A stretch of DNA of 64,000 nt from a bacterium (GCA_024228115.1 JAAETT010000050.1:16750-80749), one strand, 5' to 3'. Shown: positions 734-60,991, counted from the first letter of the stretch. Notes: generated by a model from the sequence alone, not told the origin. Made by a program: numbers and translations.

Positions 734-1270
734 CTACTCCTTCTCGGCCTTCACGCTCTCGAAGCTCGTGGCCGGTGTCTTCACATTCGTGGCCTGGGGC
801 ACATGGCACATCGTGCAGTTGTACCGGGCCCCCGAGAGATCCTTCCCCTTCGCGTAGGACTCGACCTTGAGGCGCATCGCCTCTCCCGGCTTGCCTTCCA
901 CCATCTTGGCGTTCTCGAAGTGGCTCTCGGTGACGGGGATCTCGTCGTCTTCCGTGACGTTTGTCGGGTGATGACACTCGAGGCACTCGTTCGAATCCCG
1001 CCGGATCGGCAGCATGTCCTCGACGGTGTGGGGGATCCCAGGGGGCGCATCGGGAAACGCGCGATCCAGGAGCTTCGATTCGCCGGGTTCCCCATCGAGG
1101 AATATCGGCAGTTCCTGGCTCGCGAGCGCGCTCAGATCCACATCGCGGAAGTAAACGTCGACGCCATCGTCGACCTCGGCGTTCTTGATGTCTTCCGCAC
1201 TGACGCCCCCGGCCAGAAGGGCCACGAGCATCGTGGTGATGGAAAGGCGGAACCAGATTCCTGACTGCAT
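734..1270 (-). CDS. napB: Periplasmic nitrate reductase di-haem cytochrome c subunit NapB
   Basis: Signal peptide, two CxxCH motifs (CLECH, CTMCH), about 178 aa, last gene of the napDAGHB string. Confidence 0.85.
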   Translation of the reverse strand: MQSGIWFRLSITTMLVALLAGGVSAEDIKNAEVDDGVDVYFRDVDLSALASQELPIFLDGEPGESKLLDRAFPDAPPGIPHTVEDMLPIRRDSNECLECHHPTNVTEDDEIPVTESHFENAKMVEGKPGEAMRLKVESYAKGKDLSGARYNCTMCHVPQATNVKTPATSFESVKAEKE

Positions 1271-1284: not shown

Positions 1285-2112
1285 CTAGATCTCGGTCGTT
1301 GCCGGTTCGTTACCGGCGCGGATGGGTCGAACATTGAAAGAAAAGACGTCCTGCGGGCAGACCTCGAGGCATCGCGCGCAGTTCGTGCACTCCCCGCCTC
1401 CGACGAATCCCGCCGCGGCGATCTTGTCGAAGTGGAGCACCTGGGGCTCCGGGCAGGCCCGGACGCAATCCCCGCAGTGGTCGCAGCGCTCGGCCGCAAA
1501 GGCCGGTCGCAGCAGGGAGACGCGGCCGATCAGTGCATAGAATGCACCGAGAGGGCAAAGGGATCCGCACCAGCCGTGGCGCAGGACCAACACATCGAGC
1601 AGCATGATCCACGGGATGACGAGCAGCCCGAGGCCCGCTCCAAAGATGATTTCGCGATGGAGCATGGAGACTGGGCTGATCCATTCGAAGGCGGCGACAC
1701 CGAGCACCGCGGACAGCGCGAGCCCGAGCAGCATGAATCCGTACCGGGCCTCACGCGCAACGGGCAATTGGCCGTGGGGGCGAAAGTGTCGCTTGATCAT
1801 GCGACCCAGGTCCGCGACCGGATTGACCGGGCACACCCAGGAGCAGAAGCTTCGCCCGCCAACGAATGCGTAGAACAGCACGACCAGGATGGAGCCCAGC
1901 AGCACGGTGCCCGTGATCAGGTGACCGCTGGCGAGGACCTGGAGCGCGGCATAGGGATCGGACAGGGGGACGGTCCGCAGCACACGCGAACTCGATAGAT
2001 TGCCCGTGAGCCAGCCCAGGTGCATGTGAGCACCCAGCCAGAACAGCAAGAGGATCCCCGCCTGGCTGAGCCGGCGAAGCACGAGGTAGCGATGAGCGAG
2101 GAGCCAACTCAT
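1285..2112 (-). CDS. napH: NapH, membrane-bound FeS quinol dehydrogenase subunit
   Basis: Four TM segments, CSWVCP and CGSLCP motifs, and two C-terminal ferredoxin motifs (CDHCGDCVRACP, CTNCARCLEVCP). The start MSWLL at 2112 overlaps the napG stop (ATGA). The longer ORF 1285..2607 is an upstream extension into napG. Confidence 0.85.
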   Translation of the reverse strand: MSWLLAHRYLVLRRLSQAGILLLFWLGAHMHLGWLTGNLSSSRVLRTVPLSDPYAALQVLASGHLITGTVLLGSILVVLFYAFVGGRSFCSWVCPVNPVADLGRMIKRHFRPHGQLPVAREARYGFMLLGLALSAVLGVAAFEWISPVSMLHREIIFGAGLGLLVIPWIMLLDVLVLRHGWCGSLCPLGAFYALIGRVSLLRPAFAAERCDHCGDCVRACPEPQVLHFDKIAAAGFVGGGECTNCARCLEVCPQDVFSFNVRPIRAGNEPATTEI

Positions 2113-2894
2113 GGCGTCGTGGTGTCCTCCAGCGCATCGAGTGCATCGAGCACCTTGCTCGTATTGTCCTGCCACTCCTCGGGCTGCACGGCATCCGAAG
2201 AAGTGAAATCCCGACTGATCTCTGGCTCTTCCTCCCAGCCGAAGCGGTAGTTGGATCCGAGCCGGCCCTGGGCAAGCGCCGGGGGCAGCACTTTGATCGC
2301 CGCCTCCTCGAGAACGCAGGAGTGCTCGCACATCCCGCATCCCGTGCATGCATCCGAATTGACGACCGGAAGGAAGAAGGCGTGTTTGCCCGTGCGTTCC
2401 TGGGGCCGGAACTCGAGTTGGATCGCCTTGCCCATGAGCGGGCAAGCGCGGTAACACACCTCGCAGCGCAGGCCTTTGAACGCGAGGCAGGTCTCCTGGT
2501 CCGTCAGAACGGCCAGCCCCATTCGGGCGTCCTCGATGGCCGTCTCGGGCACGAGGGAGCCACTCGGGCAGGCCGCCACGCAGGGCACGTCCGGGCACAT
2601 GTGGCACGGGACCTTCCTGGGCTCGAAGGACGGTGTGCCCAGCGACTCCTCACCGGCGGTTGCGAGTTCCAGGGTGTCGTAGGGACACGCCTCGACGCAT
2701 TGGCCGCATTTGGTGCAGGTGGCAAGGAACTCCGGCTCCGCCCGTGCACCCGGCGGCCGGCGCCGGAGGATCGGGCCACGCTGTCCCTCGACCAGTTGGG
2801 CCCAGACGGCTCCGCCCGTTCCCGCGAGGGCGAGATTCCGCCCGCGGAACGCGCCCGCAAGGAACTCGCGTCGGCTGAGGCCCGAGTCGTCCAT
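2109..2894 (-). CDS. napG: NapG, Tat-exported periplasmic poly-ferredoxin
   Basis: Tat motif SRREFL after the start MDDSG (2894, 2 nt after the napA stop). Four Cys clusters: CTKCGQCVEACP, CHMCPDVPCVAACP, CLAFKGLRCEVCYRACP, CTGCGMCEHSC. Confidence 0.85.
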   Translation of the reverse strand: MDDSGLSRREFLAGAFRGRNLALAGTGGAVWAQLVEGQRGPILRRRPPGARAEPEFLATCTKCGQCVEACPYDTLELATAGEESLGTPSFEPRKVPCHMCPDVPCVAACPSGSLVPETAIEDARMGLAVLTDQETCLAFKGLRCEVCYRACPLMGKAIQLEFRPQERTGKHAFFLPVVNSDACTGCGMCEHSCVLEEAAIKVLPPALAQGRLGSNYRFGWEEEPEISRDFTSSDAVQPEEWQDNTSKVLDALDALEDTTTP

Positions 2895-2896: not shown

Positions 2897-5497
2897 TCAG
2901 ATCTTGCGCACCCTGGCAGCGCACTTCTTGTAGTCGGTCTCTTTCGAGATCGGACACGTGGCGTCGAGGGTGAGCTTGTTGATCAGGACGTTCTCGTCGA
3001 ACCAGGGTACGAAGACGAGGCCGCGGGGCGGTCGATTCCTCCCCTGGGTCTCCACGCGCACCTTGACCTGACCTCTGCGAGATTCGAGAATCACCTCCTC
3101 ATTGCGTGCGATGCCCCGCGCCTTCGCGTCTTCCGGGTGCATGTCACACACCGCATACGGGACGGCTCGGTTGAGCTCTTCCACGCGCTTGGTCATCGAT
3201 CCGGAATGCCAATGCTCGAGGACACGGCCCGTGCAGAGCCAGAGGTCGTATTCGGCGTCCGGGCTCTCGGCCGGCTCCGCGTAGGGACGGAAGAAGATCT
3301 TCGCCTTGCCGGCGAGGTCGACCTTCTCTCCCTTCAGGCTGCCCTGGGGGATCTTCTTCAGCGCCTTGCCGTAGAAGTTGAATCCTTCGCCGGGCTTGAC
3401 GTAGGGGTCGTACCCCTCCTTGAATCGCCACTGGGTCTCACGCCCGTTGACGACCGGCCAACGCAGACCGCGCACCCGATGATAGGTGTCGAAATCGGCC
3501 AGATCGTGGCCGTTGCCGAGGCCGAATTCGCGGTACTCCTCCCAGAGCGCCTTGTGCACGAAGAAGCCGAAATGCTCGGCCATGTCGTTGGGATGACCCT
3601 CGGCGATCGGGTCGGGCCAGGCCACCTTCTTCATCTTGTCCGTCGCGAAGAGGACATCGAACAAGGTCTGCTCCGGGTCGTATCCCATCGTCTTGGCAGC
3701 AGCGAGCACGTCCGGAAGCTTGCCGTCCTCGAAGCCGTCCGCTTTCAGGCCCGGGAGCGGTTGCTCTCCCCAGACTTCCTTCAGCTTGAAGCGCTTCGAG
3801 AACTCGAGGACCTGCCAGAGGTCGCCCTCGGCTTCGCCCGGTGCCTTCACCTGCTGGCGCCAATGCTGGGTGCGACGTTCCGCGTTCCCGTATGCCCCCC
3901 ACTTCTCGTAGATCATGGCGGTCGGCAGGATCAAGTCCGCCACCTTGGCGGATACGGTCGGGTAGCAATCCGATACGACGATGAAGTTGTCACCTTCGCG
4001 TGCGGCGCGGATCCACTCGCTGGCGTTGGCGAAGTCCTGGAAGGGATTCGTCACCTGCGCCCAGAAGAACCGCACCGATCCGGCGCGAAGAGCCCGCATC
4101 ATGGCCACCGCATGGGTGCCCACCTTCGGATTCAACGTTCCTGCAGGCAGTTTCCAGAGCTTCTCGGATTTCGCCCGGTGGCCCGGGTTCGCGACCACCA
4201 TGTCCGAAGGCAGACGGTGGGCGAAGGTGCCCACCTCTCGCGCGGTGCCGCATGCAGAGGGCTGGCCCGTGAGCGAGAACGCACCGGCGCCCGGCGTCGA
4301 GATCTTTCCGCCGAGCAGGTGGATCATGTAGATCTGCTCGTTGACCCAGGTTCCGCGGGTGTGCTGGTTGAAGCCCATCGTCCAGAAGGAGACGACCTTC
4401 CGCTTCGGGTCGGCGTAGAGATCGGCGAGTTCCAGGAGCTCCTTCTTCGGAACTCCCGAGAGTTCGCTGACATACTCGACGGTGTAGGGCTCGAGCTTCT
4501 GCTTGAACTCCTCGAACGAGATCGCCCAGTGAGCGCCCGCCTTGCTCCGCATCGTCTGGCCCTGCTCGCGCGGATGGTCCGCGGGCAGGCCGTAGCCGAT
4601 GTCCTCCGGGCCAGTTGCGAAGATGCAGTGCTTCTTCACGAAGTCATGGTTGACCGCGTCCTTCTCGATCATGTGCTTCGCAATGAAGTTCATGATGGCC
4701 AGGTCGGTCTGGGGCTTGAAGACGATCTCCAGATCGGCGAGATCCCCGCTGCGATTCCCGAATGTGGTGAGGTTGACCACCTTCGTCTTCGCATGCGTCA
4801 GCTTGCGGTCGGTCACGCGCGACCAGAGGATCGGGTGACACTCGGCCATGTTGGCGCCCCAGGAGACCACGGTATCCGTCACTTCGATGTCGTCGTAGCA
4901 GCCCGGGGGTTCGTCGATGCCGAAGGTCTGGATGAACCCGGCAACCGCGGAAGCCATGCAGTGGCGTGCATTCGGGTCGATGTTGTTGGATCGCACGCCC
5001 GCCTTCATGAACTTGGCGGCGGCGTAGCCCTCATCGATCGTGTACTGGCCCGAGCCGAAGATCGAAACGGCCGAAGGGCCGGACTCCTGGTAGGCCTCCT
5101 TGAACTTGGCGGCCATCACGTCGAAGGCTTCTTCCCAGCTCACCGGGGTGAAATCGCCTTGCTTGTCGAACTTCCCGTTCTTCTTCCGGAGCAACGGACG
5201 CGTCAAGCGGTCTTCGCCATACATGATCTTGGCGTTGAAGTAGCCCTTGATGCAGTTGATGCCGCGGTTGACGGGGGATTCGGGGTCGCCCTTGACGGCC
5301 ACCACGCGCCCCTTCTTCGTCGCCATCATGATCCCGCAGCCGACTCCGCAGAAACGGCAAACGGATTTATCCCATTTCCATCCCGCTTCGAGCGCCTTGG
5401 CCTTGGCCTGGGCTTCTGCCGGCACCCACATTCCCATGCTGGTTGCGGCGGAGGCTGCAACGGCGGTCTTCAGAAAACTACGACGCGTTTGTTCCAT
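2897..5497 (-). CDS. napA: Periplasmic nitrate reductase catalytic subunit NapA (molybdopterin, [4Fe-4S])
   Basis: Tat signal [11 protein letters not shown]-terminal CRFCGVGCG...C cluster, about 867 codons of Mo-bisMGD oxidoreductase sequence. I chose the start at 5497 (AGAGGG SD 4 nt upstream); the ORF track's 5527 is a GTG further upstream. Confidence 0.95.
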
Positions 5498-5682
5498 GGT
5501 GCCCTCTCTCGTCATACGCGCGCTCACGAGCCGGACGGCTCGGCGCGTCTCCTATCAAAAGCAAGGATCGCGCCAGCGGAGAGTGGCTGTGGCGGGCTCT
5601 CAGCCCCCATTTCGAGCGTGGTGCGGCGCAGGGCCCCGGTCGATGCGGAAGCAAGCCTCAGTTGGCTGCAACCTGGCGCCGG

Positions 5683-5928
5683 CTATTTGCCGGCCTCCTC
5701 GTCTACGAAGTGTTCGACCATCTCGGCGAGGATGACGTTGGGGATCTCTCGAAGCTCGAGGATACGTGCCGTGGCCTCATTCGTGGAAGCGGCCTCGATC
5801 GTCGCGATGATTCGCCCGCTCTCATCCTCCACGTGGTGGACGTCCGCCCACTCGTGGGCATTGACGGCCGCCCGGGTTTCGTCGATATGCTCGGGACGTG
5901 TCGTTACCAGGATGGCTGAAATCATCAT
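5683..5928 (-). CDS. napD: NapD, NapA Tat-signal-binding chaperone
   Basis: 81 aa, begins MMISAILVTTRP (the typical NapD ISSLVV-type beginning), sits immediately upstream of napA. Its ATG overlaps the stop of the WD40 gene (ATGA). Confidence 0.75.
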   Translation of the reverse strand: MMISAILVTTRPEHIDETRAAVNAHEWADVHHVEDESGRIIATIEAASTNEATARILELREIPNVILAEMVEHFVDEEAGK

Positions 5929-6932
5929 GGCCGTTCATTCTCCTCGGGATTCTCGATGTTCCATACCAGCACCCGTGCATCGTTTCCGGCGCTGATCAAA
6001 TGGTTTCCGCCCGACGTGAACGCGAGGGCCTGGATGGGCGCCGTGTGTCCCGCGAGCTGTTCGAGGATCCGGCCCGTCGGCATTTCGATCAGACCGATCC
6101 TGTGATCCTCGAGCGTCGCGGCCAGTCGCGTGCCTGCCGGGTCGATCGCGACAGCGGTGACATAGCGGTCGCCCCGGTAGAGGGTCCGCGGGCTGGGTGG
6201 GTCGACCCTTAGATCCCAGTAGAGAATCTGCTTGTCCTTGCTCCCGCTGACCAACGCTCCCTCGTTCGCCCAGCCCAACGAGAAGACGCTATCCCGATGG
6301 CCCTCCAGCATCTGGAGTGTCCGGCCGCTTCGCGCGTCCACCACCTGGATACGGCTCGAGCGCAACCCGATGGCCACCCGGCTGCGGTCGGGACTCGAGG
6401 CGATCGCATAGATCGGGTCGTAGTCGAGCTGTCTGCGGTAAATCTCCTTGCCGGTGTCGATATCCACAAGCGCGAGTTCTCCGCGCATGCTCCCGAGCAA
6501 CAGGTGCCGGTCGTCCAGGAATCGGCACGCCAGTACGCTGCCGAAGGTAGGCAAGGGGCGAGGCAACGCCGCGGCCGCAGACCCTTCCAGATCGAAGAGC
6601 CAGAGCCGCTCGTCGGAGCTGGCGGCTGCCCCCCGCAGGCCGCCGGGGGAGATGGCGACGCAGGAGACCGTGGCCGGAAGCTCGTGTCCCGGCTCAGGCG
6701 GGAGGGAGAGGAGCGCCTCGAGCGTTGTTCCCTTCCGCCAATCGTAGGCCTCGACGCGCCCCGATTGGGTTGCCACGAGCACCCGGTCCCCGCCGAGTGC
6801 CGCGTCCAAGATCATGTGATCGGCTCGAAAGGCTCGAGACGCCGCTTCGAACTCGCTTCCTTCCGCCCCCGCTGCGCCTGCGAGCCCCGAGAGCGCTAGA
6901 GCCAACGCGAGCCCTCGCGAGAACGGACTCAC
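5925..6932 (-). CDS. Secreted WD40-repeat beta-propeller protein (possibly NapL-like)
   Basis: GH...WD-type repeats (GHRDSVFSLGW...LYWDL; GHTAPIQALAF...VLVWNI) and a Sec-type signal (LALALALSGLAGAAGAEG). The proposed GTG start at 6932 overlaps the NrfD-like stop (GTGA). The annotated ORF start at 7280 would overlap the upstream gene by about 350 nt. Confidence 0.7.
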   Translation of the reverse strand: MSPFSRGLALALALSGLAGAAGAEGSEFEAASRAFRADHMILDAALGGDRVLVATQSGRVEAYDWRKGTTLEALLSLPPEPGHELPATVSCVAISPGGLRGAAASSDERLWLFDLEGSAAAALPRPLPTFGSVLACRFLDDRHLLLGSMRGELALVDIDTGKEIYRRQLDYDPIYAIASSPDRSRVAIGLRSSRIQVVDARSGRTLQMLEGHRDSVFSLGWANEGALVSGSKDKQILYWDLRVDPPSPRTLYRGDRYVTAVAIDPAGTRLAATLEDHRIGLIEMPTGRILEQLAGHTAPIQALAFTSGGNHLISAGNDARVLVWNIENPEENERP

Positions 6933-8152
6933 GTCCGCCGATACCCGAGCTCCCCAAGCGTGATGGCGATCGAGATCTTGGCCATGAACGTGAAGCTGAG
7001 AAGTCCCACGCCCCAGACGCCTGCACCCACCATGAGCTCGTTCAAGCTCGGTGTGTATCGATAGACCTCTCCGATGACATCCGGCGTCAACCCGGGCAGC
7101 AACAGGCCGAGTCCCTTCTCGACGTAGACCCCCGCAACGGCCAGCACGCACCCCACGAGGAGGAAGCGGATACGGTTGCGAAGGGCGGGGACGACGAAGA
7201 TGACGAACGCCGTGACGTTGCACGTCAACGCGAATATGGAGTAGCCCGCAATGCCGTAGCCGTCTTCCAGACCAAACCATTGGAAGCGAGCATGGATGAC
7301 GTGATGACTATGGGAGTAGAACTCCTTGAACACCTCACACCCGAGGAAGAAGAGGTTGATCGCCATGGCGTAGGCCAGCAACTCGCCGATCTTGCGCAAC
7401 GCGGCGCCCGAAATCTGGACCGGACTGACCTTCCGAAGGATCTGGAAGATCAGCACCAGCAATGCGGGGCCGGAGCAGAAGGCGCTCGCCAGGAAGCGGG
7501 GTGCCAGGATGGCGTCATTCCAGAACGGTCTGGCTTTGAGTCCCATGAAGAGGAACGCGGTCACCGTATGGATGCTGATGGCCAGGGGAATGGAGAGGAA
7601 GATGATTGGCATGATGAAGGACGGATTGTACTTCCGCCCCGTGTAGCTCATGAACACGAGATAGGTTGCGACGAAGAAGTTGAGGACGAAATAGGCGTTG
7701 AGAACGAGGACATCCCATACGAGCAACGAGTAGGGAAAGTTCGGCGTGCCTACGCCTGGCATCATATGCCAGACTTTTTCGGGGCGCCCGATGTCGACGG
7801 TTACAAAGAGCATGCACATGATGATGGCGGAGATCGCCAGCAGTTCGCCTAGCAAGGCGACCTCGCGAATGGGTCCCCAGTTGTAGATGTAGGCAGGAAT
7901 GATCAGGATCACCGCTGCTGCGGCCACTCCGACCAGGAATGCAAAGTTGCCGATGTAGAAGCCCCAGGAGACCGGGTCGCGCATGTTGGACGTGACCAAC
8001 CCGAAGCTCGCCTGGTTGACGAAGGCGTAGAGCCCGCCAAGGATCATCAGGAGCAGCAAGCCTACCCAGAGCATGTACCCGCGGCTCCCGCTCGCGACGA
8101 GAGCCACACTTTCCTTGGTGAAATGCCAGAATTCTGCGAGGTATACCGTCAT
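6929..8152 (-). CDS. NrfD/PsrC/DsrP-family polytopic membrane quinol-interacting subunit (about 10 TM)
   Basis: 407 aa, hydrophobic throughout, directly downstream of a Tat-FeS NrfC-like gene. This is the typical NrfCD/PsrBC pairing. Confidence 0.85.
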   Translation of the reverse strand: MTVYLAEFWHFTKESVALVASGSRGYMLWVGLLLLMILGGLYAFVNQASFGLVTSNMRDPVSWGFYIGNFAFLVGVAAAAVILIIPAYIYNWGPIREVALLGELLAISAIIMCMLFVTVDIGRPEKVWHMMPGVGTPNFPYSLLVWDVLVLNAYFVLNFFVATYLVFMSYTGRKYNPSFIMPIIFLSIPLAISIHTVTAFLFMGLKARPFWNDAILAPRFLASAFCSGPALLVLIFQILRKVSPVQISGAALRKIGELLAYAMAINLFFLGCEVFKEFYSHSHHVIHARFQWFGLEDGYGIAGYSIFALTCNVTAFVIFVVPALRNRIRFLLVGCVLAVAGVYVEKGLGLLLPGLTPDVIGEVYRYTPSLNELMVGAGVWGVGLLSFTFMAKISIAITLGELGYRRT

Positions 8153-8164
8153 GCCGGGTTCTCC

Positions 8165-9094
8165 TCAGCCGTAGAAGTAGAAGAACTTGGGCCGCGTGGC
8201 GAGTTCGGATTTCAACACGAAGGTCCGCTTGTGTTTCAGCAGGTAGGAGATCTCGCTATCTGGATCGAGAAGGTTCCCGAATTTGCGCGCTCCCACCGGG
8301 CAAGCCTCATGACATGCCGGGTAGCGTCCGTCTCGGACTCGCTGGATGCAGAAGCTGCATTTCTCGACCACTCCGCGTGAGCGCGGCACATTTCCCAGCG
8401 GGTGGATGTTCGTGTTCACCTCGTCCGCCGGGATCGTGGGCGCGGCCCAGTTGAAATGCCTCGCGCCGTAGGGGCACGCCGCCATGCAGTACCGGCAGCC
8501 GATGCACCAGTCGTAGTCGATCACCACGATGCCGTCGGGCTCTTCCCAGGTTGCCCCGGTCGGGCAGACGTTGGTGCAGGGCGAATCCTCGCATTGCTGG
8601 CATGCAATCGGGAGGTACACCATGCCCTCGGCGGGTGCTTGCTCGTGCTCGTAGTACGGGTTCCCTTCGTCGAGTTCGAAACCGCGTACCACGCGTTCGC
8701 GCTCGAATTCGAGCACCCGGATCCATTGGATCTCCGGATCGCGGGATTGATTGTTCTCCTGGACGCAGGCATCGACACAGCGCCGGCAGCCGATGCAGCG
8801 CGAGATGTCGAGGCCGTAGCCGAAGAGAGTATTGTCGACCGGGCCGGTGGCCTGGACATTGAAAGACTTGCCAAATTTCTTCTCGTACTTCCGAGCCATC
8901 CGATCCTTGAGCGCTTCGATCTCCTCGTCGGACATCCGCCGAAAGTTCTTCTGGAAGAACGTCTCGAAGTCGAACGCCTCGGCGGCGGCGGGGACGCCGG
9001 CGGCCGCGCCCACCCCAGCGGCCGTCGTGCGCAGGAACTTTCGTCTGGACGCGCCCTTGGCGTCGAGGTGTTCGTCCCGTTCAGGGTTCTTCAC
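8165..9094 (-). CDS. Tat-exported 4x[4Fe-4S] NrfC/PsrB/HybA-like ferredoxin subunit
   Basis: GTG start at 9094 preceded by GGAGGA. Tat motif SRRKFLRTTA. Four Cys groups: CIGCRRCVDAC, CQQCEDSPCTNVCP, CIGCRYCMAACP, CSFC...CHEACP. Confidence 0.85.
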   Translation of the reverse strand: MKNPERDEHLDAKGASRRKFLRTTAAGVGAAAGVPAAAEAFDFETFFQKNFRRMSDEEIEALKDRMARKYEKKFGKSFNVQATGPVDNTLFGYGLDISRCIGCRRCVDACVQENNQSRDPEIQWIRVLEFERERVVRGFELDEGNPYYEHEQAPAEGMVYLPIACQQCEDSPCTNVCPTGATWEEPDGIVVIDYDWCIGCRYCMAACPYGARHFNWAAPTIPADEVNTNIHPLGNVPRSRGVVEKCSFCIQRVRDGRYPACHEACPVGARKFGNLLDPDSEISYLLKHKRTFVLKSELATRPKFFYFYG

Positions 9095-9713
9095 GATCGG
9101 TTTCCTCCGGCTCGACGTCGGGCTGCCAGGTAACCATGGAAGGCGGAACCGGAGGCGGCTTCGGCTCGATCGGTTTGAACTTCGGCGAATGCGGGTCGTG
9201 GCAGGCGACGCAGGTCCAAACCTCCTTGGCGCCCCACCAGTGGCCCGTGCGTTTCCCATGCACGCCGGCCTTCCACTCGTCGAGGCGCTGGCCATGGCAT
9301 TGGGTGCAGAGCTTCCAGGACTCCTCGAACTCCACGAGGGTTCCGTTGGAGAGGCGGAGGCTGTCGCGATCGCCCGTATCGTGGCAGCGCAGGCACCAGA
9401 GGTCGCCGTGGGCGAGCGCGGTCTCTTCGTGATCGTCCTCGAACTCGCGCTGCGTCGGATCCGTCGGCTCACCTTCGTGGCAATCGTTGCAAGGCGCGTA
9501 GTCGTCATTCATCTCGGGCGGGGGAAGCAGTACCGGCAGAGGCTCAGGCGGCAGCGTCCTGCTCGGGTAGGAGCGGGCGACATCGGGACCGAAGGCGCAG
9601 CGGACCGAGAGCAGTCCAAGAACCAGAACGACGGCCAACCCCAGGACCACCCAGGTGGCTGCTCCTCCAGGCTGGGATTGATCGTCGGCGCCCCCCGGGT
9701 CGTCGTCCACCAT
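9081..9713 (-). CDS. Membrane-anchored tetrahaem cytochrome c (cytochrome c3-family-like)
   Basis: One N-terminal TM (WVVLGLAVVLVLGLLSV) and four CxxCH motifs (CNDCH, CLRCH, CTQCH, CVACH). The stop overlaps the NrfC-like start by 14 nt. Confidence 0.8.
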   Translation of the reverse strand: MVDDDPGGADDQSQPGGAATWVVLGLAVVLVLGLLSVRCAFGPDVARSYPSRTLPPEPLPVLLPPPEMNDDYAPCNDCHEGEPTDPTQREFEDDHEETALAHGDLWCLRCHDTGDRDSLRLSNGTLVEFEESWKLCTQCHGQRLDEWKAGVHGKRTGHWWGAKEVWTCVACHDPHSPKFKPIEPKPPPVPPSMVTWQPDVEPEETDREEP

Positions 9714-9715
9714 TG

Positions 9716-10321
9716 TCAGTCAGCCTCGTCCTCGGCCATCGGGTCGTAACCCTCGGGGACCGGATGTGCGATCTCGGCGACTGCCTTGTCGTAGTCGAAG
9801 CCGGTCGTGGTCCCGTCCGCGAGCGTGTACTTCCCCGGATCCCAGGCCGGGCTCTCGTCGTTGTGACAGGTCGTGCAGACCTCGGCGCTTTGGAGGACCA
9901 GGCCATTTTCCACCGCGAGATCACGATCGATCATGATCTTCTTCTTGCGGTATTTCGTTCCCGCCCCGTGGCAGGCCTCGCACTGCACCCCATCTTCGAT
10001 CTTGAACTTCATCCCGAGACGTTCTGCGGGAACACCGTACGCCGTGACGTGGCACTTCACGCAGGCCTCGTCGGTGGTCGGGTCGGCCACACCTGCTTCG
10101 GTGGCCCACTCCTTTGCTTGTTCCGAGGAGAGGGTCTGGAACGCCGTGGCGTGGGTCGTCTTTTCCCACGAGCCGATCTGGTTGCCGATCGGTTCCTTCT
10201 TGTGGCAGGACCGGCACTTCTTGACGCCACCGTATTTGTGCTCGCCCGCCGGGCCGCCCGCGAAGGCAGGCCCGGCGAGGAGGCACATCATGGCGACGGC
10301 GATCGTCATCATCCGAAGCAT
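9716..10321 (-). CDS. Soluble periplasmic tetrahaem cytochrome c (c554-like multihaem family)
   Basis: Signal peptide (MMCLLAGPAFAGG) and four CxxCH motifs (CRSCH, CVKCH, CEACH, CTTCH). Lies 24 nt downstream of nirS and 2 nt upstream of the next cytochrome gene. Confidence 0.85.
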   Translation of the reverse strand: MLRMMTIAVAMMCLLAGPAFAGGPAGEHKYGGVKKCRSCHKKEPIGNQIGSWEKTTHATAFQTLSSEQAKEWATEAGVADPTTDEACVKCHVTAYGVPAERLGMKFKIEDGVQCEACHGAGTKYRKKKIMIDRDLAVENGLVLQSAEVCTTCHNDESPAWDPGKYTLADGTTTGFDYDKAVAEIAHPVPEGYDPMAEDEAD

Positions 10322-10345: not shown

Positions 10346-11974
10346 CTAGTAGATGTCGTGCACGGTGTTGTGCACGTTCCACTTGCCGGTCGGGGTGACG
10401 AGCCAATCGCCCGTGATCCGCTTCTTCTCCTTCAGGGTCTTGTCGTCATAGACGATGATCTCGCCCTTCTTGTCCCAGACGGAGGTCCAGACCTCGTTGC
10501 CTTCCTTGTTGTACTCGAAGTGAACGATCTTGCCGTGCTCCGTAGCCTTCCAGCAGTTGGGCCCGTCGTCGAAAGAGGCTTTCTTGAAGACGCAGATCTT
10601 CTGGTTGTCGCCCTCTTCCTTGGCGATGGTGCTGTCCACCCAGATGTTCTCGCTCTCCGGATGCGTCTTCAGGAACAGCCCCGGCCCCATCGTCTCCTGT
10701 TCGCGAACCACCTTCCATGCGTGGTCGGGATGGCCCGCAGGATCGGAGCCGAAGACCGTGATCTTGCCCTCGCCCAGGTGGGTGGTGGCACTCACGGGGC
10801 CAAATTCAGGATCGACCCAGTTTGCGCCGCGTCCCGGATGAGGCTTTACGCCCGTCTCGAATTTCGCGACGAACTTCTTTTCCTTCGTGTCGATGACGAC
10901 CATCTGGTCACGCATGTTGGCCGCGATCAGCAGGTAGCGCTTGGTCGCATCCCAGCCACCATCGTGGAGGAACCGCTCGGAAGCGATCTGGGTCATCTTG
11001 AGATTGTCCAGGTCGGAGTAGTCCACCAACCAGACCATTCCGGTTTCCTTGATCGCTACGACCCACTCCGAGTCCGCGTGGGACGCGACGATCGTCGCAA
11101 CCCGGGGCTCCGGGTGATACTCGTTCGTGTCATAGGTCGACGAGCGTGTGGAGATGACCTTCTTCGGCTCCAGCGTCTGTCCGTCGAGGACGACCATCTG
11201 CGGCGGCCAGTAGCAGCCCACGACCGCGAGAGAGTCCTCGAAGTCGCCCTTCGGGCCCTTGTACTTGGACACGTCGATCGAGCGGGCATCCAGGCACGTG
11301 CGCACGGAGGCGACGACCTTGGGCTTGTCCGAGTAGAGATCGATCAGGTTGACGACGCCGTCGCGGCCGATCGTGTAGAAGTATCGGCCTGTCGCCGAGG
11401 CACGGAAGATGTGCACGGCGAACCCGGTATCGAGTACTTCGACGAGTTCCTTCGTGTCTCCATCGATGATCGCGCCCTTGCCGGCATCGCGAAGGATGAA
11501 GCCGAAGTAGTTCTGGATGTCCCGGTCATGCTCCGGCTTCGTCGGCCGAGCCTCGACAGGAACGATGACCTTGTGGCTTTCCGCCATCGCCTTCAGGCCC
11601 ATCTCGGGCGGAATCGGAGCCGGAATCTGGACGAATTTCGCCATCAGCGCCGTCTCGGCCTTCGTCATTTCACCGGTTCGACCCCAGCCGGGCATGCCGG
11701 CCTCGGTCCCGTCGAAGATCACTTCCTCGAGCTCGGGGAGGGTCTTCTTCAACATCTTCTCGTCGCTGATGTTGGGGCCCGTCGCTCCCTTGCGGAGGGC
11801 GCCGTGACATCCCGAGCATCGGTCGAAATAGATGAATTCGGCCTTGTCGAAGTCCTCTTCGCTCAGCTTCGGTGCGGCTTCGGCGCTTACGACCTGTGCG
11901 GCCAATGGCACCCATGCCATCAGGACAAGGCAGCTCAACGCGTTCAACCACCAGTTGGAATGAATTCGGCTCAT
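10346..11974 (-). CDS. nirS: Cytochrome cd1 nitrite reductase NirS
   Basis: Signal peptide, N-terminal haem c domain (CSGCH), about 430-aa d1 beta-propeller with typical blocks (GRYFYTIGRDG, RVATIVASH, HPGRGANW, TPTGKWNV). GGGAGA SD lies before the ATG at 11974. Confidence 0.95.
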   Translation of the reverse strand: MSRIHSNWWLNALSCLVLMAWVPLAAQVVSAEAAPKLSEEDFDKAEFIYFDRCSGCHGALRKGATGPNISDEKMLKKTLPELEEVIFDGTEAGMPGWGRTGEMTKAETALMAKFVQIPAPIPPEMGLKAMAESHKVIVPVEARPTKPEHDRDIQNYFGFILRDAGKGAIIDGDTKELVEVLDTGFAVHIFRASATGRYFYTIGRDGVVNLIDLYSDKPKVVASVRTCLDARSIDVSKYKGPKGDFEDSLAVVGCYWPPQMVVLDGQTLEPKKVISTRSSTYDTNEYHPEPRVATIVASHADSEWVVAIKETGMVWLVDYSDLDNLKMTQIASERFLHDGGWDATKRYLLIAANMRDQMVVIDTKEKKFVAKFETGVKPHPGRGANWVDPEFGPVSATTHLGEGKITVFGSDPAGHPDHAWKVVREQETMGPGLFLKTHPESENIWVDSTIAKEEGDNQKICVFKKASFDDGPNCWKATEHGKIVHFEYNKEGNEVWTSVWDKKGEIIVYDDKTLKEKKRITGDWLVTPTGKWNVHNTVHDIY

Positions 11975-12231
11975 GATCTGGGTCTCCCTGGTTCGATGGG
12001 CTGGATCGGTGCAACTCCTATGCCCGCATGCTCCTCCGCTCGCTGGTCGGGAGGGCCAATCCAGAAAGCCCAGCTTTGATGGGCATTCAGGCCATCAAGG
12101 AGATGGAAATGGGCCCCGGGGAGGGCCCGGCCAGTTGCCTCCGGGCGAGGAAGAACGACCCGGAATAACCGGTAGTGGGTCGAAATGCAGCAGTCAGCCA
12201 CTTCGCGCGGCCGATCGAGGCCAGCTCGGGC

Positions 12232-12246: not shown

Positions 12247-12305
12247 GTCTGGACCCAGGTGGGCCTTCGAAGTGGGCTCCGCTTTCAGTGGGGGTTTTGG
12301 GCACC

Positions 12306-12623
12306 ATGGTTTCAGTCGAAGCACATCAGAAGAGGCTCGAGGAGCGACGCCGGAAGATCGGTCGCCGGGTCGGGCGGATCACCGATGATCTGCGCCGCAC
12401 CCCGGATCCGGATTCAGAGGAACGGGCCACGGAGGCGGAGAACGACGAAGTCCTGGAGGGCCTCGACGCCGCGGGCCGGCAGGAGTTCGATGCCATCGAA
12501 GCGGCACTCTTGCGAATCGCTGCCGGTACCTTTGGCACCTGCGCCCAATGCGGCGGTGCGATCGACGAGCGCCGTCTCGAAGTGATTCCGCACACGCCAA
12601 CCTGCGTCGATTGCGCCAGCTGA
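12306..12623 (+). CDS. DksA/TraR-family C4 zinc-finger protein
   Basis: 105 aa, coiled-coil-like N-terminal part, CAQCG-x17-CVDC zinc ribbon at the C-terminus. Confidence 0.75.
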   Translation: MVSVEAHQKRLEERRRKIGRRVGRITDDLRRTPDPDSEERATEAENDEVLEGLDAAGRQEFDAIEAALLRIAAGTFGTCAQCGGAIDERRLEVIPHTPTCVDCAS

Positions 12624-12677: not shown

Positions 12678-13865
12678 CTAGCCTTCGATCCCGTCGACGC
12701 GGTACCCGCCCGCGAGGTCGATTTCGAAACCGTGTTGGCGCAGTAGATCTTTGGCGATGGTGAGTTGTTGGATTTCACTCGTTCCGCCACCGACCGTCCA
12801 GAGCTTGATATCGCGGAACAACCGCTCCGGAGCATGCTCTCGGAGATAACCCGCGCCGCCCATGATCTGCATCGCGTCGAGCGCGGCACTGGCGGCCTTT
12901 TCGGTCGCATACCATTTGGCGGCACTGACTTTCCGCTCCGTCAGGTCTCCGTCCTTTTGTGCACGGATCAACTCGAACATCGAATTGCGAACGTTCTCGA
13001 GGGAAACGTACATACGGCCGAGTTTCTGTTGTGTGAGCTGAAACGCCGCGATGGGTTTTCCGAACTGAACCCGCTGGGTCGCATGCCTGACCGCTTCTTC
13101 GAGGCTGCGCTCGATCACACCCAGACACATCGCGACGATGACCGCGCGCTCGCCGCTCAATGTCTGTTCCGCAGTGGCGCGGGCGGGGCGATCCGGATCT
13201 CCCAGGAGATTCTCGCGGGGTACGCGCACGTCGTCGAGGAAGATGTCGCCCGTGGGAGAAGCATGCATGCCGAATTTCTGCAGCGGCGGCCCGGTCGTCA
13301 GGCCGTCCGTTCCGCGTTCTACGACAACGGGATAGATGCGTCGTTTGTCGCGCGAATCGCCTCCCTCGAGGCGTGCATAGATGAGCAGCACCTCGGCTTC
13401 CGGAGCGTTGGAGGAGAAAGCCTTGCTGCCATTCAGCACGACCTCGTCGCCCTCGATGCGCGCAGTCGTTTTCAGGGCAAAGGCGTCGGAGCCACTCTCA
13501 GGCTCGGTCAGCGCCCAACAACCCGCTTTCTTCAGCGAGAGCACGGGCATGCCGCAGCGCTGGATCAGTTCGGCGGAGCCTCGGGTGAGGATCGTCGCTC
13601 CGCAGCCGAAATTCGAAACGACGGAGAGCGCAAGACCCGGGCTCACGCGGGCGAGTTCCTTGGAGATGATGGCCGGGACAGCCGGGTCGGCGATGGCACC
13701 GGAGGTGATCAACCCCTCGATGTCGAGGGCATCGGACATTTCGCCCATGATTTCGAATGGCGAGAGGCTGCCGGCTTCGAGTTCGGGGATGCGTGGCTCG
13801 ATTTCGCGATTGCAGAAATCGCGGATCACGGACTCCATGACTTGTTGGGTTTCGTCGAATTCCAC
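12678..13865 (-). CDS. Acyl-CoA dehydrogenase family protein
   Basis: ACAD N-terminus (VEFDETQQVMESVIRDFCNREIEP) and C-terminal ...GGTSEIQ motif. GTG start at 13865 is preferred over the ORF-track start at 13913. Confidence 0.85.
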   Translation of the reverse strand: MEFDETQQVMESVIRDFCNREIEPRIPELEAGSLSPFEIMGEMSDALDIEGLITSGAIADPAVPAIISKELARVSPGLALSVVSNFGCGATILTRGSAELIQRCGMPVLSLKKAGCWALTEPESGSDAFALKTTARIEGDEVVLNGSKAFSSNAPEAEVLLIYARLEGGDSRDKRRIYPVVVERGTDGLTTGPPLQKFGMHASPTGDIFLDDVRVPRENLLGDPDRPARATAEQTLSGERAVIVAMCLGVIERSLEEAVRHATQRVQFGKPIAAFQLTQQKLGRMYVSLENVRNSMFELIRAQKDGDLTERKVSAAKWYATEKAASAALDAMQIMGGAGYLREHAPERLFRDIKLWTVGGGTSEIQQLTIAKDLLRQHGFEIDLAGGYRVDGIEG

Positions 13866-13965
13866 AATTCCCCCTGGGCGTTCCTGCGCAGAGCGCAATC
13901 GGGAAGAGCGCAATCATACTCATCTCCGCCGACTGGCGGGTTTCTCCAGCCGAACGGATCTGGCC

Positions 13966-14997
13966 CTAGGTGTGAAAGGTCTCGGCGATTGCGGTTGCGT
14001 AGAAGAACGCCTTCTCCGGGCCGAGGCCGTACGCCGGGGGGACGATGCAGATCGAATCGGCCAGGCCATCGAGCTTGCCGATCCGCTCGCGCACCTTTTC
14101 GGGCTCTCCGACGCTGACGAAGGCGCGCACCATTTCGTCGGGAACCAGGTGCGCGACGCTCATGTAGTCGCCTCGTTGGACACCCTCCTGGAGCTTGCGC
14201 GCGACATCGAGGAAGCCGTGTGCCTCGAAGAAGGATTCGTATTGCTTCACGCCGCCGTAGAACGCGATCGTCGGCCGTGAATCCTCGATGGCCTCGGCCT
14301 CGTTGGGATTGGGCGCCGCCCAGGGCCAGATATTGACCTCGATGTCGCTGCGGCCCCGGCCGGCGGCTTCGAGAGCCCGGTCGAGTTCCGGAGCCATCGA
14401 TTCCTTTGCCCACTCGATCGACCACATCGGGTGGCCGATCAGGCCGTCCGCGACCTGTGCCGCCATCCGGACCATCGGGGCTCGTAGGGCGGCGACCCAG
14501 ATTGGAATCTCCTCGCGCAGCGGCGCTGCCGTCGGCTGGAGTTCCTTGAAATCCGCCTGGTAGTACTCGCCTTCGAAGGGCTCGAGCCCCTTGTGAGCAC
14601 CGCTCACGATGTGGCGAATGGCTTCTACCGTTTCCCTCAGGTGCGTGACGGGCTTGTGCACGGGTGCGCCAAAGACTCCGTGGGACCATGCTTGCACACT
14701 CGCGCCGACGCCCAATGTGAAACGTCCACCGGAGATCCGATCCATGTCGATGGCGGCCATGGCCGTCTCGAAGGGGCTTCGGGCAGCCGCGATGGCGATG
14801 CCACTGGCCAATTGCAAGCGCTCCGTCACACCGGCCGCGACAGCCAGGGGTAGGAAGGGTGGGCCCATGACCTGCGGCGCGAAGCAACCATGGATTCCCC
14901 TGGCTTCGGCCTGGCGGGCCATTTCGACGAGAATCGGGGCGGGGAGCGGCTGCAGCACACTCCAGTGTCGCGGGCTCGAGGGTTCGCTGTTCGTCAT
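13966..14997 (-). CDS. Luciferase-like (LLM class) flavin/F420-dependent oxidoreductase
   Basis: 343-aa TIM-barrel LLM-type sequence (GRFTLGVGAS..., IWVAALRAPM...). Confidence 0.75.
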   Translation of the reverse strand: MTNSEPSSPRHWSVLQPLPAPILVEMARQAEARGIHGCFAPQVMGPPFLPLAVAAGVTERLQLASGIAIAAARSPFETAMAAIDMDRISGGRFTLGVGASVQAWSHGVFGAPVHKPVTHLRETVEAIRHIVSGAHKGLEPFEGEYYQADFKELQPTAAPLREEIPIWVAALRAPMVRMAAQVADGLIGHPMWSIEWAKESMAPELDRALEAAGRGRSDIEVNIWPWAAPNPNEAEAIEDSRPTIAFYGGVKQYESFFEAHGFLDVARKLQEGVQRGDYMSVAHLVPDEMVRAFVSVGEPEKVRERIGKLDGLADSICIVPPAYGLGPEKAFFYATAIAETFHT

Positions 14998-15027
14998 CGA
15001 TTGCCTCCCGGCGTTGTCATGCAGGCT

Positions 15028-15672
15028 TCAGTTCTTCCGACTCATCCGTTCGATCCCACCGAGGAAGAGCTCGGTGGCAAATGTGGTTGCCTTCTCCACG
15101 TCGGCCTTCGTGCGTACGCAATGGATCGCCAGCTCACTCGCTACACCGATGGCGGCCAGGGCGACGAGATCGAAATCCATCGCGGGCACGACGCCCTCCT
15201 TCGCCTTGGAGCGAAGATCCTTCGTGAGATCGGCGATCGCCGGCTCCAATGCCTTGTGAGACATCAGTTCTTCGATCTCTCCGGCGTTGCGTGTCAGCAG
15301 CGCCAGGACCATTTCGTCCTCGACGAAGATTTCGAAGCAGATCCTGAACGCGGATCGCAGCAGGTCTTCCAGCGTTTCTGCGGCTTCGCGGGCTTCGTGG
15401 ACGCGTCTTCGGAGTTCGATCTGGAAATCGCCGATGAGCTCGTGGAGCAGGGCTTCCTTGTCGGGGAAGTAGTTGTAGAAGGTGCCGCTGGCCAGGTCGG
15501 TACGGCGAGTGATGTCACGCACGGTCGTGGCACCGAATCCCAGTTCGCAGAAGGCATCGTGGGCAGCCCGGAGGATTTCCGCCCGATTGCGCGCGGCATT
15601 GCGTGCACGCTTGCCGATCTCGACCTCGCCGTCTTCCTCGTGGCGGCGCGACGGCGTACTCCGTCCGCTCAA
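15028..15672 (-). CDS. TetR/AcrR family transcriptional regulator
   Basis: N-terminal HTH (RNRAEILRAAHDAFCELGFGATTVRDITRRTDLASGTFYNYF). The start overlaps the upstream ligase stop. Confidence 0.85.
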   Translation of the reverse strand: MSGRSTPSRRHEEDGEVEIGKRARNAARNRAEILRAAHDAFCELGFGATTVRDITRRTDLASGTFYNYFPDKEALLHELIGDFQIELRRRVHEAREAAETLEDLLRSAFRICFEIFVEDEMVLALLTRNAGEIEELMSHKALEPAIADLTKDLRSKAKEGVVPAMDFDLVALAAIGVASELAIHCVRTKADVEKATTFATELFLGGIERMSRKN

Positions 15673-17288: not shown

Positions 17289-17298
17289 GCTTCCCTCT

Positions 17299-18531
17299 TC
17301 AGGACTGGAGAATCGTCACGACCATCGCGGCAACATCAGGGCCGATGTTGCCTCCGCCATTCTGGGCCAGCCCGACGCGGGCTCCCTCGACCTGGCGGTC
17401 TCCGGAGCGTCCCTGCAACTGCTCGGCCAGCTCGACGATCTGGGCGATGCCCGTAGCACCCACGGGATGGCCCTTGCGAAGCAAGCCGCCCGAGGTGTTG
17501 ACCGGCAGGCGCCCGCCGAGGCGCGTTGTGCCGTCGCTGACCAGCTTGCCGCCCTCACCCTTCGGGCAGAGCCCCAGGTACTCGTAGGCCATGACCTCGG
17601 CCGGGGCCGAGGCGTCGTGCAATTCAACGACGCTCAGGTCTTCCGGGCCCACGCCGGCCTCTTCGTAGGCCGTTCGCGAGCAGACCTCGCCCGCACCGTC
17701 CTCGCCGTACTCGTGATCCCAACCGGAACGCAGCACGCTCGAGGTGATCTTCACGGGTTTCTGGATGCCGAGCTCGCGCGCCTTGGCTTCGCTGACGAGC
17801 ACGACCGCAGCCGCGCCGTCGCCGATCGGCGAGCACATGGGGCGCGTCAGAGGCTCGGCAATCATCGGAGAGGCCAGCACGTCTTCGATGGACAGAGCCT
17901 CCCGAAACTGCGCCCGCGGGTTCATGCTTCCGTGGAAGGAGTTCTTCGCCGAGACGCCGGCGAATTGCTCGACGGTGGTTCCATAGTTGGCCATGTGTCC
18001 GCGTGCGGCGGCGGCGTAGATGTCCATGAACATCGAGCGCTTTTCGCCCGCGCCGGAAGCGCCGCTCTTGGCACCGCTCTCCTTCGCACTCTCCTGCAGG
18101 CGCTTCATGATCCCTTGCATGGCCTCGACATCCACCGCGCCGCTGAACGCCGCAAAGGACTTCCGCTTGTCCGCGTGGTAGAGCTTCTCGACGCCCAGCG
18201 CGAGAACGACGTCGTAGAGACCGGCGGACACCATCGCGGCTGCTTCGTGAAGTGCCGTCGAGGAGCTTGCGCAGGCATTCTCCACGTTCACGACCGGCAG
18301 CTTGCCGAGGCCGATCGAGCGAAGGATGACCTGGCCGCGGATACATTCCTGACCCGTAACGAGGCCGGCGGCCGCGTTGCCGACATAGGCCGCTTGCAGA
18401 TCGTCCAGGCCGAGGCCGGAATCGGCGATGGCCAGCTGGACCGCGTCGGCACCCAGGGCCTTGAGACCCGTTTCCATATGCTTTCCGAAGGGCGTCATCC
18501 CGACACCCGCGATGACCGCGTTCAGTTTCAT
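17299..18531 (-). CDS. Thiolase (SCP-x/lipid-transfer-type acetyl-CoA acyltransferase)
   Basis: Thiolase fold blocks (VENACASSSTAL, ...NTSGGLL..GHPVGATG). Confidence 0.9.
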   Translation of the reverse strand: MKLNAVIAGVGMTPFGKHMETGLKALGADAVQLAIADSGLGLDDLQAAYVGNAAAGLVTGQECIRGQVILRSIGLGKLPVVNVENACASSSTALHEAAAMVSAGLYDVVLALGVEKLYHADKRKSFAAFSGAVDVEAMQGIMKRLQESAKESGAKSGASGAGEKRSMFMDIYAAAARGHMANYGTTVEQFAGVSAKNSFHGSMNPRAQFREALSIEDVLASPMIAEPLTRPMCSPIGDGAAAVVLVSEAKARELGIQKPVKITSSVLRSGWDHEYGEDGAGEVCSRTAYEEAGVGPEDLSVVELHDASAPAEVMAYEYLGLCPKGEGGKLVSDGTTRLGGRLPVNTSGGLLRKGHPVGATGIAQIVELAEQLQGRSGDRQVEGARVGLAQNGGGNIGPDVAAMVVTILQS

Positions 18532-18573
18532 CCGTTCACTCCTATGTTCTCGCCCCGGATCCGATGAGCCGGC

Positions 18574-19362: not shown

Positions 19363-19403
19363 TTCCTGATCTCCTCTCCCTCTGGGTTCCGTTCCTCGGC
19401 GAT

Positions 19404-48591: not shown

Positions 48592-48683
48592 CCGGTTGTT
48601 TCCTCGTGGTGGCACGAGATCACCCGAGGTATGGGCAATCCCAGAAAATGCGTTCGTAGCAGTGTGCTAAGCAACCTGCCAGG

Positions 48684-59432: not shown

Positions 59433-60991
<1,559 letters not shown>

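Follow-up and report, generated by a model that had tools for sequence, protein, structure and literature searches.

A DsrOP-type oxidoreductase module and a c554-like cytochrome beside nirS: a candidate electron route to cytochrome cd1 nitrite reductase

Introduction

We have analysed a 64-kb stretch of bacterial DNA with a G+C content of about 64% (GCA_024228115.1, JAAETT010000050.1:16750-80749; hereafter the window), in which nirS, the gene for the cytochrome cd1 nitrite reductase, is followed by genes for a c554-like soluble tetrahaem cytochrome, a membrane-anchored tetrahaem cytochrome, an iron-sulfur (Fe-S) protein and a polytopic membrane protein. We use the term module for the last three of these. 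Judged by family membership and gene neighbourhood, they appear to constitute an oxidoreductase of the DsrOP type (more narrowly, the Cbc4/DsrOhPh-tetrahaem type) that has gained a c554-like shuttle and a place in a nirS(-nap) operon in a Myxococcota lineage. We think it rather probable that quinol is oxidised at the DsrP-like membrane subunit, and that the electrons pass by way of the Fe-S protein, the anchored tetrahaem and the c554-like cytochrome to NirS, with the periplasmic nitrate reductase NapAB as a probable second acceptor. This is an extension of a known modular logic, not a new principle.

In textbook denitrification NirS is fed through the cytochrome bc1 complex and small c-type cytochromes or azurin, or, in Stutzerimonas, by NirT.

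Results

The module lies in an operon with nirS and nap

Genes were called from a listing of open reading frames (ORFs) combined with codon-position G+C, and identified using Pfam and NCBIfam. The nirS gene, the four genes that follow it, a gene for a WD40 protein and napDAGHB form a co-directional run on the minus strand (Table 1). The product of nirS is recognized by the Pfam domain Cytochrom_D1 (E = 4.5e-122), with an additional match to Cytochrome_CBB3. From nirS to the membrane-protein gene the successive gaps are 24, 2, -14 (an overlap) and 12 nt; the Fe-S protein gene has a GTG start codon at 9094, preceded by the ribosome-binding site GGAGGA. A promoter and terminator scan found no terminator-like sites between the operon genes and gave nothing informative. 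The FNR/DNR box TTGAT-N4-ATCAA was matched 17 times against 9.4 ± 3.5 expected; the sole match upstream of nirS (12076-12089) carries two mismatches and is not significant.

In 14 other loci an orthologue of nirS, 73-92% identical, is similarly placed. The same gene order is present in these loci, where the NrfD-like protein is 62-90% identical to that of the window, and the arrangement of nirS and the module is thus not due to chance. The first-pass annotation had described a four-gene module, including the c554-like gene, beside a cd1 nitrite reductase; all of these genes and their motifs were confirmed, together with their coordinates.

The membrane and Fe-S subunits are DsrP- and DsrO-like

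The membrane subunit clearly belongs to the NrfD/PsrC superfamily (Pfam NrfD, PF03916; E = 1.4e-39, 137 bits against a cutoff of 25.8), and has ten long helices both by hydropathy and in an AlphaFold model with a predicted TM-score (pTM) of 0.78. The first-pass annotation had called the module NrfBCD-like and proposed a comparison with the ActC, DsrP, NrfD, Psr and Qrc families. That comparison was made using curated NCBIfam models, and DsrP and DsrO were the best matches. For the membrane subunit the scores were 366.8 bits for DsrP (cutoff 350), 34.9 for QrcD (570), 26.9 for TtrC (314) and 16.4 for NrfD (347.6); for the Fe-S protein they were 182.6 for DsrO (200), 159.8 for QrcC (400) and 119.5 for NrfC (377.6). 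By these profiles, the two subunits are DsrP/DsrO-like and not of the NrfD/NrfC, Qrc or alternative complex III (ACIII) kind.

Direct comparison with canonical proteins gave 36-38% identity for the membrane subunit against DsrP and 37% for the Fe-S protein against the DsrO of locus L090 (we refer to loci by L numbers and to database proteins by P numbers). The DsrP of L090 (P0386, 38% identical) is encoded in a genuine dsrM-K-J-O-P locus. Eight charged or polar residues are invariant in the window protein, in other stand-alone modules and in P0386, namely E103, D120, D147, H195, R208, E273, K346 and E372. We infer that two of these, D120 and E372, plausibly correspond to Asp107 and Glu359 as published for the Archaeoglobus sequence. 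In the Fe-S protein, SRRKFL forms a twin-arginine motif and the 16 cysteines fall into four sets of four; PDB matches of this protein include ArrB, PsrB and ActB of ACIII. For the membrane subunit the best solved structural matches are ActC chains of ACIII (phmmer E = 1e-11; Foldseek TM-score 0.76-0.77 at about 20% identity), and there were no DsrP chains among its PDB structural matches.

The DsrP model NF045798 scores 370-426 bits, against its cutoff of 350, on all eight stand-alone relatives to which it was applied (L005, L014, L019, L028, L041, L045, L062 and L071). Since every one of these modules exceeds the cutoff, the equivalog model over-calls, and does not discriminate DsrP of the sulfur pathway from the stand-alone proteins. 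At least one protein of a Myxococcota metagenome-assembled genome (MAG), P0035, is named 'sulfate reduction electron transfer complex DsrMKJOP subunit DsrP', with no dsrMK called at its locus. Naming stand-alone modules in this way is likely to be a systematic mis-annotation.

Membership in three known complexes was considered and rejected. No NrfA was found that would make this an NrfABCD system, the NrfD and NrfC scores are those given above, and the likeness of the anchored cytochrome to NrfB is limited to E = 0.005. For QrcABCD, the QrcD and QrcC scores are likewise far below their cutoffs, and neither the hexahaem QrcA nor the molybdopterin-like QrcB is present. An ACIII is not indicated by a single NrfD-like gene, a 309-aa Fe-S protein that lacks a molybdopterin domain, and a tetrahaem cytochrome, with no ActD, ActE or ActF.

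Two tetrahaem cytochromes

The anchored tetrahaem cytochrome contains a single hydrophobic helix, spanning roughly residues 19-41, and then a proline-rich linker of about 30-33 residues before the first CxxCH. Its haem-binding motifs CNDCH, CLRCH, CTQCH and CVACH are at residues 75, 107, 136 and 168. Four further histidines outside the motifs (H95, H102, H152 and H175) are invariant in the family, consistent with bis-histidine ligation of all four haems. Matches to known cytochromes are poor. The NapC/NirT family (PF03264) scores 22.4 bits, just under its cutoff of 24.1, and covers residues 128-176 only; NrfB is matched weakly, as noted above. No likeness to DsrJ was detected in the cytochrome domain, a profile comparison with the trihaem DsrJ of L090 aligning the transmembrane helix only, at 28% probability.

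The c554-like protein begins with what looks like a cleavable signal peptide and contains the motifs CRSCH, CVKCH, CEACH and CTTCH. It matches Pfam Cytochrome_C554 (PF13435) with E = 1.2e-19, whereas the equivalog model for Nitrosomonas c554 (CycA) gives 69.5 bits against a cutoff of 400. By these scores it is a distant relative of the Nitrosomonas protein and not an orthologue. The tetrahaem and c554-like cytochromes of the window have database counterparts of 100% identity (P0121 and P0241) on a 7.7-kb NCBI contig, and the nearest species-level relative is 'Deltaproteobacteria bacterium Meg19_02_Bin_150', with 90-96% protein identity. The window is accordingly assigned to a sediment lineage without cultured members. 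Homologues of both cytochromes are named 'hypothetical' or 'cytochrome c family protein', or carry evidently spurious names.

The module is widespread, and one clade is linked to nirS and nap

Databases contain over 8000 relatives of the DsrP-like protein. A pattern scan, taking one genome per species, gave 80 loci, which were read by tblastn with the window proteins. The genes for the anchored tetrahaem, the DsrO-like and the DsrP-like proteins are adjacent in 78 of the 80; in L049 and L067 the contig ends before the tetrahaem gene. The loci are spread over Myxococcota or 'Deltaproteobacteria', Acidobacteriota, Planctomycetota, Bdellovibrionota, Gemmatimonadota and other phyla, and clustering of ORFs revealed no other broadly conserved neighbour of the three genes. 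The three-gene core, which in at least 50 loci of other phyla stands by itself beside regulators, is a generic and widespread cassette and not an invention specific to NirS.

A neighbour-joining tree of the DsrP-like proteins has two groups. Clade A, which is monophyletic, comprises the window and 21 loci with at least 58% identity to the window protein, mostly from Myxococcota-type MAGs; three loci outside the tree were added to it on the basis of DsrP-like identity and an adjacent c554-like gene, bringing the clade to 25 loci with the window. All clade-A loci carry a c554-like gene. Clade B has 52 loci in the tree, with 51-57% identity, and in 51 of these c554, nirS and nap are all absent. 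The remaining one, L069, shows a c554-like match beside the module on the opposite strand. Recurrent neighbours in clade B are sigma-54 response regulators, histidine kinases and cyclic nucleotide monophosphate (cNMP)-binding proteins.

We then counted gene orders in clade A, including the window and the metagenome loci L001, L003, L005 and L087. The order nirS-c554-module was found in 15 loci, and is kept down to about 62% identity. In four loci (L017, L019, L024 and L051) the module follows napA(GH)B, with the c554-like gene before or after it and no nirS within 10 kb. Four more have other contexts, with molybdoenzymes, multihaem cytochromes or a nirJ-like gene, and three are cut by the end of the contig. 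The tie to NirS and/or Nap suggested in the first-pass annotation is thus upheld by conserved synteny.

The c554-like gene as common denominator

A search starting from the c554-like protein uncovered two further loci in which nirS is paired with a c554-like gene, but which lack the module. The order is nirS-c554-napDAB in L088, and nirS-c554 alone in L089. The c554-like gene therefore accompanies the module where nirS is absent, and nirS where the module is absent, making it the common denominator of these loci. Of the evidence available, this co-occurrence speaks most strongly for a chain from the module through c554 to NirS, and we propose that the c554-like protein acts as a shuttle between the membrane module and NirS or NapB.

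Other genes of the window and of related loci

Table 1. Genes of the nirS-module-nap run in the window, listed in the direction of transcription
Gene or product	Coordinates	Strand	Remarks
nirS, cytochrome cd1 nitrite reductase, first gene of operon	10346..11974	(-)	542 aa; N-terminal haem c domain with CSGCH
c554-like soluble periplasmic tetrahaem cytochrome	9716..10321	(-)	201 aa; four CxxCH, signal peptide, PF13435
Anchored tetrahaem cytochrome c	9081..9713	(-)	210 aa; transmembrane helix, Pro-rich linker, four-haem domain
DsrO/NrfC-like Tat-exported four-cluster Fe-S protein	8165..9094	(-)	309 aa; SRRKFL, 16 Cys
DsrP/NrfD-like membrane subunit, ten helices, cofactor-free, quinol-interacting by family	6929..8152	(-)	407 aa; Pfam NrfD
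WD40 beta-propeller protein, periplasmic	5925..6812	(-)	~295 aa; start inferred from orthologue length; WD40/beta-propeller Pfam matches
napD chaperone	5683..5928	(-)	81 aa; from ORF size and position; orthologue is PF03927 NapD in L001, L003
napA, periplasmic nitrate reductase catalytic subunit	2897..5527	(-)	NCBIfam NapA 1441 bits (cutoff 904)
napG	2109..2894	(-)	NCBIfam NapG 320 bits (cutoff 269); start inferred from 261-aa orthologue
napH, membrane quinol dehydrogenase subunit	1285..2112	(-)	NCBIfam NapH 328.8 bits (cutoff 234); start inferred from 275-aa orthologue
napB, dihaem subunit	734..1270	(-)	Pfam NapB E = 8.9e-22

Two genes for quinol-dependent nitric oxide (NO) reductases (qNORs; NorB fused to a cytochrome-c-like domain) are present at 41088-43403 (+) and 56935-59316 (-). 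One is beside a gene for a GAF/sigma-54 NorR-like activator and the other is downstream of a gene for an Rrf2 (NsrR-like) regulator, the regulator genes being located at 59429-60991 (+) and 39937-40638 (+). Together with NapGH, the qNORs and the NorR-like and Rrf2 regulators fit a quinol-centred chain, as judged from the genes present; with NapGH and the qNORs, all the N-oxide reductases of the window could draw directly on quinol. Neither Rieske/cytochrome b nor ACIII genes were found, an observation that applies to the 64-kb window and is silent on the rest of the genome.

Around and between the qNOR genes are five more genes of possible respiratory relevance. They encode a multicopper oxidase of 562 aa (37480-39168, -), a hemerythrin-domain protein (48142-48615, -), a DUF2249 protein (48684-49193, +), a Coq4-domain protein (54192-54854, -) and a COX3/NorE-like membrane protein (53529-54143, +). 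The Coq4-domain protein is a possible hint of ubiquinone synthesis.

The WD40 gene, whose product has a signal-peptide-like N-terminus, separates the DsrP-like gene from napD, and retains this position in L001, L003 and L012. We know of no function for a WD40 protein in a nir or nap operon. Upstream of nirS, and divergent from it, a gene at about 12300-12623 (+) encodes a DksA/TraR-type C4 zinc-finger protein; it has the same place in L001 and L002, and by its type and location the protein could be a regulator of the nirS operon.

Several related loci have features of their own. In L011, which lacks nirS and nap, two molybdopterin oxidoreductases (13218-16214 and 17229-20090; 998 and 953 aa, 23% identical to NapA) are encoded downstream of the module and c554-like gene, which suggests, from location, further terminal enzymes that the module may serve. 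In L024 a second pair of anchored tetrahaem and DsrO-like genes at about 13000-15000 lies downstream of the first module and the c554-like gene belonging to it, at a distance of some 1.8 kb, and suggests a local duplication of the module. Divergent from nirS in L005 (1-5416) and L087 (1-5882) is a cluster encoding a COX1-family protein of about 573 aa, a small COX2-like protein and two unannotated proteins, along with SCO1/SenC and a fusion of cytochrome b, ferredoxin and FlpD domains. From its domain content, this cluster may specify a haem-copper NO reductase of unusual type, accompanied by a quinol-oxidising partner of its own. A distant module at the P0391 locus (cytochrome c, Fe-S and NrfD-like proteins; 35% identity) is placed between tatA/tatC and a full menA/B/C/D/E/F/G-like set. 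This location in a menaquinone-biosynthesis cluster is a hint that menaquinol is the substrate of the family.

Discussion

A proposed route from quinol to NirS

The favoured scheme is as follows. The anchored tetrahaem, the DsrO-like and the DsrP-like proteins would form a periplasm-facing quinol:cytochrome c oxidoreductase complex. Quinol, probably menaquinol, would be oxidised at the DsrP-like subunit with release of protons to the periplasm. Electrons would then pass via the four [4Fe-4S] clusters of the DsrO-like protein to the four bis-histidine haems of the anchored cytochrome, and from there to the soluble c554-like tetrahaem. Acting as donor, the c554-like protein would make contact with NirS and reduce its haem c, from which haem d1 is supplied, and a branch to NapB is likely. 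We infer the direction of flow from the families to which the subunits belong; the route may bypass the bc1 complex. The route would be electroneutral unless the NrfD-type subunit pumps protons, because nitrite reduction consumes periplasmic protons.

Recent cryo-electron microscopy (cryo-EM) of the DsrP family led its authors to conclude that DsrP oxidises menaquinol, with electrons passing from DsrO to DsrJ and protons released to the periplasm (bioRxiv 10.64898/2026.08.25.746951). The earlier proposal that such a module links the quinol pool to periplasmic cytochromes thus gains structural support from the closest family, DsrP/DsrO.

A number of observations weigh against this scheme. Its support is wholly comparative, and all the relatives come from MAGs of uncultured organisms. 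The nirS-linked loci are not independent of one another, since they belong to one clade and their synteny is partly inherited. Four clade-A loci have no nirS or nap nearby, with other molybdoenzymes or multihaem cytochromes instead; together with the stand-alone modules of clade B these argue for a general-purpose output rather than one specific to NirS. The window itself offers an alternative NirS donor, in the form of a monohaem cytochrome c gene at 291-719 beside a nirN-like gene. Lastly, the AlphaFold model of the anchored tetrahaem (predicted local distance difference test (pLDDT) 53.8, pTM 0.28) is too poor for a fold search.

Other explanations of the locus

The broadest alternative is that the module is a general substitute for bc1 or ACIII, serving the whole periplasmic cytochrome c pool, and that its tie to NirS reflects no more than co-regulation under anoxia. 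The clade-B modules, which stand alone beside sigma-54 two-component, histidine-kinase or cNMP regulators, speak for this, as do the P0391 module in its menaquinone-biosynthesis cluster and the clade-A loci with other redox partners; moreover, papers on cable bacteria treat such complexes as a candidate ACIII. Against this, the gain of the c554-like gene in clade A coincides exactly with linkage to nirS or nap, and the persistence of the nirS-c554 pair without the module points to a dedicated branch and not to a generic pool. We regard a general substitute as rather unlikely. It is unlikely, too, that the module mainly serves NapAB, as a replacement for NapC or in parallel with NapGH, with the adjacency of nirS being an effect of a nir-nap supercluster. 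The four loci in which the module and c554-like gene directly accompany napA(GH)B and nirS is absent within 10 kb would be explained in this way, and in two of them (L019 and L024) napA and napB are found with no napG or napH match, so that Nap there would need another quinol dehydrogenase. However, the window already encodes NapGH, and nine loci have nirS-c554-module with no nap match in the locus sequence (L005, L008, L014, L018, L020, L021, L022, L033 and L087, of which L018 and L021 are short contigs). In L088, moreover, the c554-like gene directly follows nirS, ahead of nap.

The module might also operate in reverse, as a Qrc-like cytochrome c:quinone reductase, with c554 collecting periplasmic electrons for a quinone pool that feeds NapGH and the qNORs. 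Members of the NrfD family run in both directions, and Qrc reduces quinone; the other N-oxide reductases of the window draw on quinol; and in Nitrosomonas, hydroxylamine oxidoreductase (HAO) passes electrons to c554 and thence to cM552, toward the quinone pool. Yet no periplasmic dehydrogenase (hydrogenase, formate dehydrogenase, HAO or Sox) was found in the operon or the window, the conserved neighbours of the module are reductases, the QrcD score is very low, and DsrP, the nearest family, oxidises quinol (bioRxiv 10.64898/2026.08.25.746951). On balance reverse flow seems improbable. It is hardly credible that the genes encode true DsrOP subunits of a DsrMKJOP complex of sulfur metabolism, even though the DsrP equivalog score lies above its cutoff and the relative P0035 is annotated as DsrP. 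Neither DsrM (Nitrate_red_gam) nor DsrK (CCG) was found in the operon, in the annotated ORFs of the window or in the loci of five Pfam-annotated relatives. The cytochrome has four haems and no DsrJ likeness in its cytochrome domain, the DsrP of a true dsrMKJOP locus is only 38% identical, and the DsrP model over-calls. Membership in DsrMKJOP was accordingly rejected.

Comparison with known systems

A DsrOP-type module feeding NirS through c554, as we favour, has its closest counterparts in two complexes, the first nearest in architecture and the second in concept. Cbc4 of Geobacter sulfurreducens (GSU0068-0070) consists of CbcS, with a membrane anchor, a linker and four bis-histidine haems, CbcT, with four [4Fe-4S] clusters, and CbcU. 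The complex is viewed as a quinol:cytochrome c oxidoreductase with periplasmic multihaem carriers as its electron acceptors, and no physiological role has yet been defined for it (bioRxiv 10.1101/2025.04.14.648717). CbcT has been reported to be an orthologue of DsrO. Gene order and architecture are the same as in the window, a likeness drawn from the published description of Cbc4. Cbc4 differs in its association with extracellular metal reduction and PpcA-type trihaem partners, in place of a c554-like tetrahaem partner and a nirS/nap context. The second, 'DsrOhPh-tetrahaem' (DsrOhPhCyt), occurs in cable bacteria, Desulfobulbales, and Gamma- and Betaproteobacteria, and is a candidate ACIII of unknown function (PMC13047784; bioRxiv 10.64898/2026.08.25.746951). 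Compared by its published definition, it shares with the window DsrO/DsrP-like genes outside a dsrMK locus, an all-bis-histidine tetrahaem and occurrence also in non-sulfur organisms. Its gene order in cable bacteria is however TMH1-DsrOh-DsrPh-tetrahaem, with a separate single-helix protein, whereas in the window the tetrahaem comes first and has its own anchor. No link to nirS, nap or a c554-like protein has been reported for either complex.

Among curated families DsrJOP is the closest, sharing the J-O-P gene order, the ten-helix NrfD fold and conserved charged residues; in the window, however, DsrMK is absent, and an unrelated tetrahaem replaces DsrJ, which has three haems, one of them His/Cys-ligated. 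In DsrMKJOP the electrons cross to the cytoplasm, whereas in the proposed route they would exit to the periplasm. ACIII provides the best solved structural match, ActC, and is, as predicted for the window complex, a quinol:cytochrome c oxidoreductase able to replace bc1. It differs in possessing ActF, ActD, ActE and the molybdopterin-like ActB1 domain, all absent here, in an ActB of about 1000 aa compared with the 309-aa Fe-S protein, and in a pentahaem ActA in place of a tetrahaem. NirT (of the Stutzerimonas stutzeri nirSTB genes) and NrfBCD/NrfH resemble the window in placing a dedicated quinol dehydrogenase beside a periplasmic nitrite reductase, with an anchored tetrahaem immediately downstream of nirS. 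But in NirT and NrfH the cytochrome's own haem 1 is the site of quinol oxidation, while the window cytochrome has its long linker before the first haem and is accompanied by the DsrP/DsrO pair; its PF03264 score is below threshold, and the NrfD and NrfC models are far below their cutoffs. We found no earlier description in the literature of nirS wired to NrfD, DsrOP, ACIII, c554 or a quinol dehydrogenase module. An Oslofjord MAG paper reports ordinary ACIII-like clusters, not a nirS-linked module of the DsrOP-like kind.

Implications

A more far-reaching version of the scheme, which has some chance of being right but which we consider doubtful, is that in a marine Myxococcota lineage the DsrOhPh-type complex and c554 constitute the sole link between (mena)quinol and NirS. 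The Nap, NirS and qNOR steps, from nitrate to nitrous oxide (N2O), would then be independent of bc1, the NrfD-type subunit might pump protons, and the orphan Cbc4/DsrOhPh-tetrahaem complexes would acquire a first function.

The analysis exposes a mis-annotation, in that names such as 'DsrP, sulfate reduction complex' are attached to proteins of non-sulfur organisms. If the proposed scheme is correct, NirS would have a third route of supply, a DsrOP-type quinol dehydrogenase wired to nirS by a dedicated tetrahaem shuttle. The energy yield of this route would differ, because there is no Q-cycle, and so would inhibitor sensitivity and quinone preference, with a bearing on the genome-based prediction of nitrite, NO and N2O fluxes in marine sediments. 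It would also give a first, testable physiological role to Cbc4 and DsrOhPh-tetrahaem, which two studies of 2025-2026 flagged as widespread and of unknown role.

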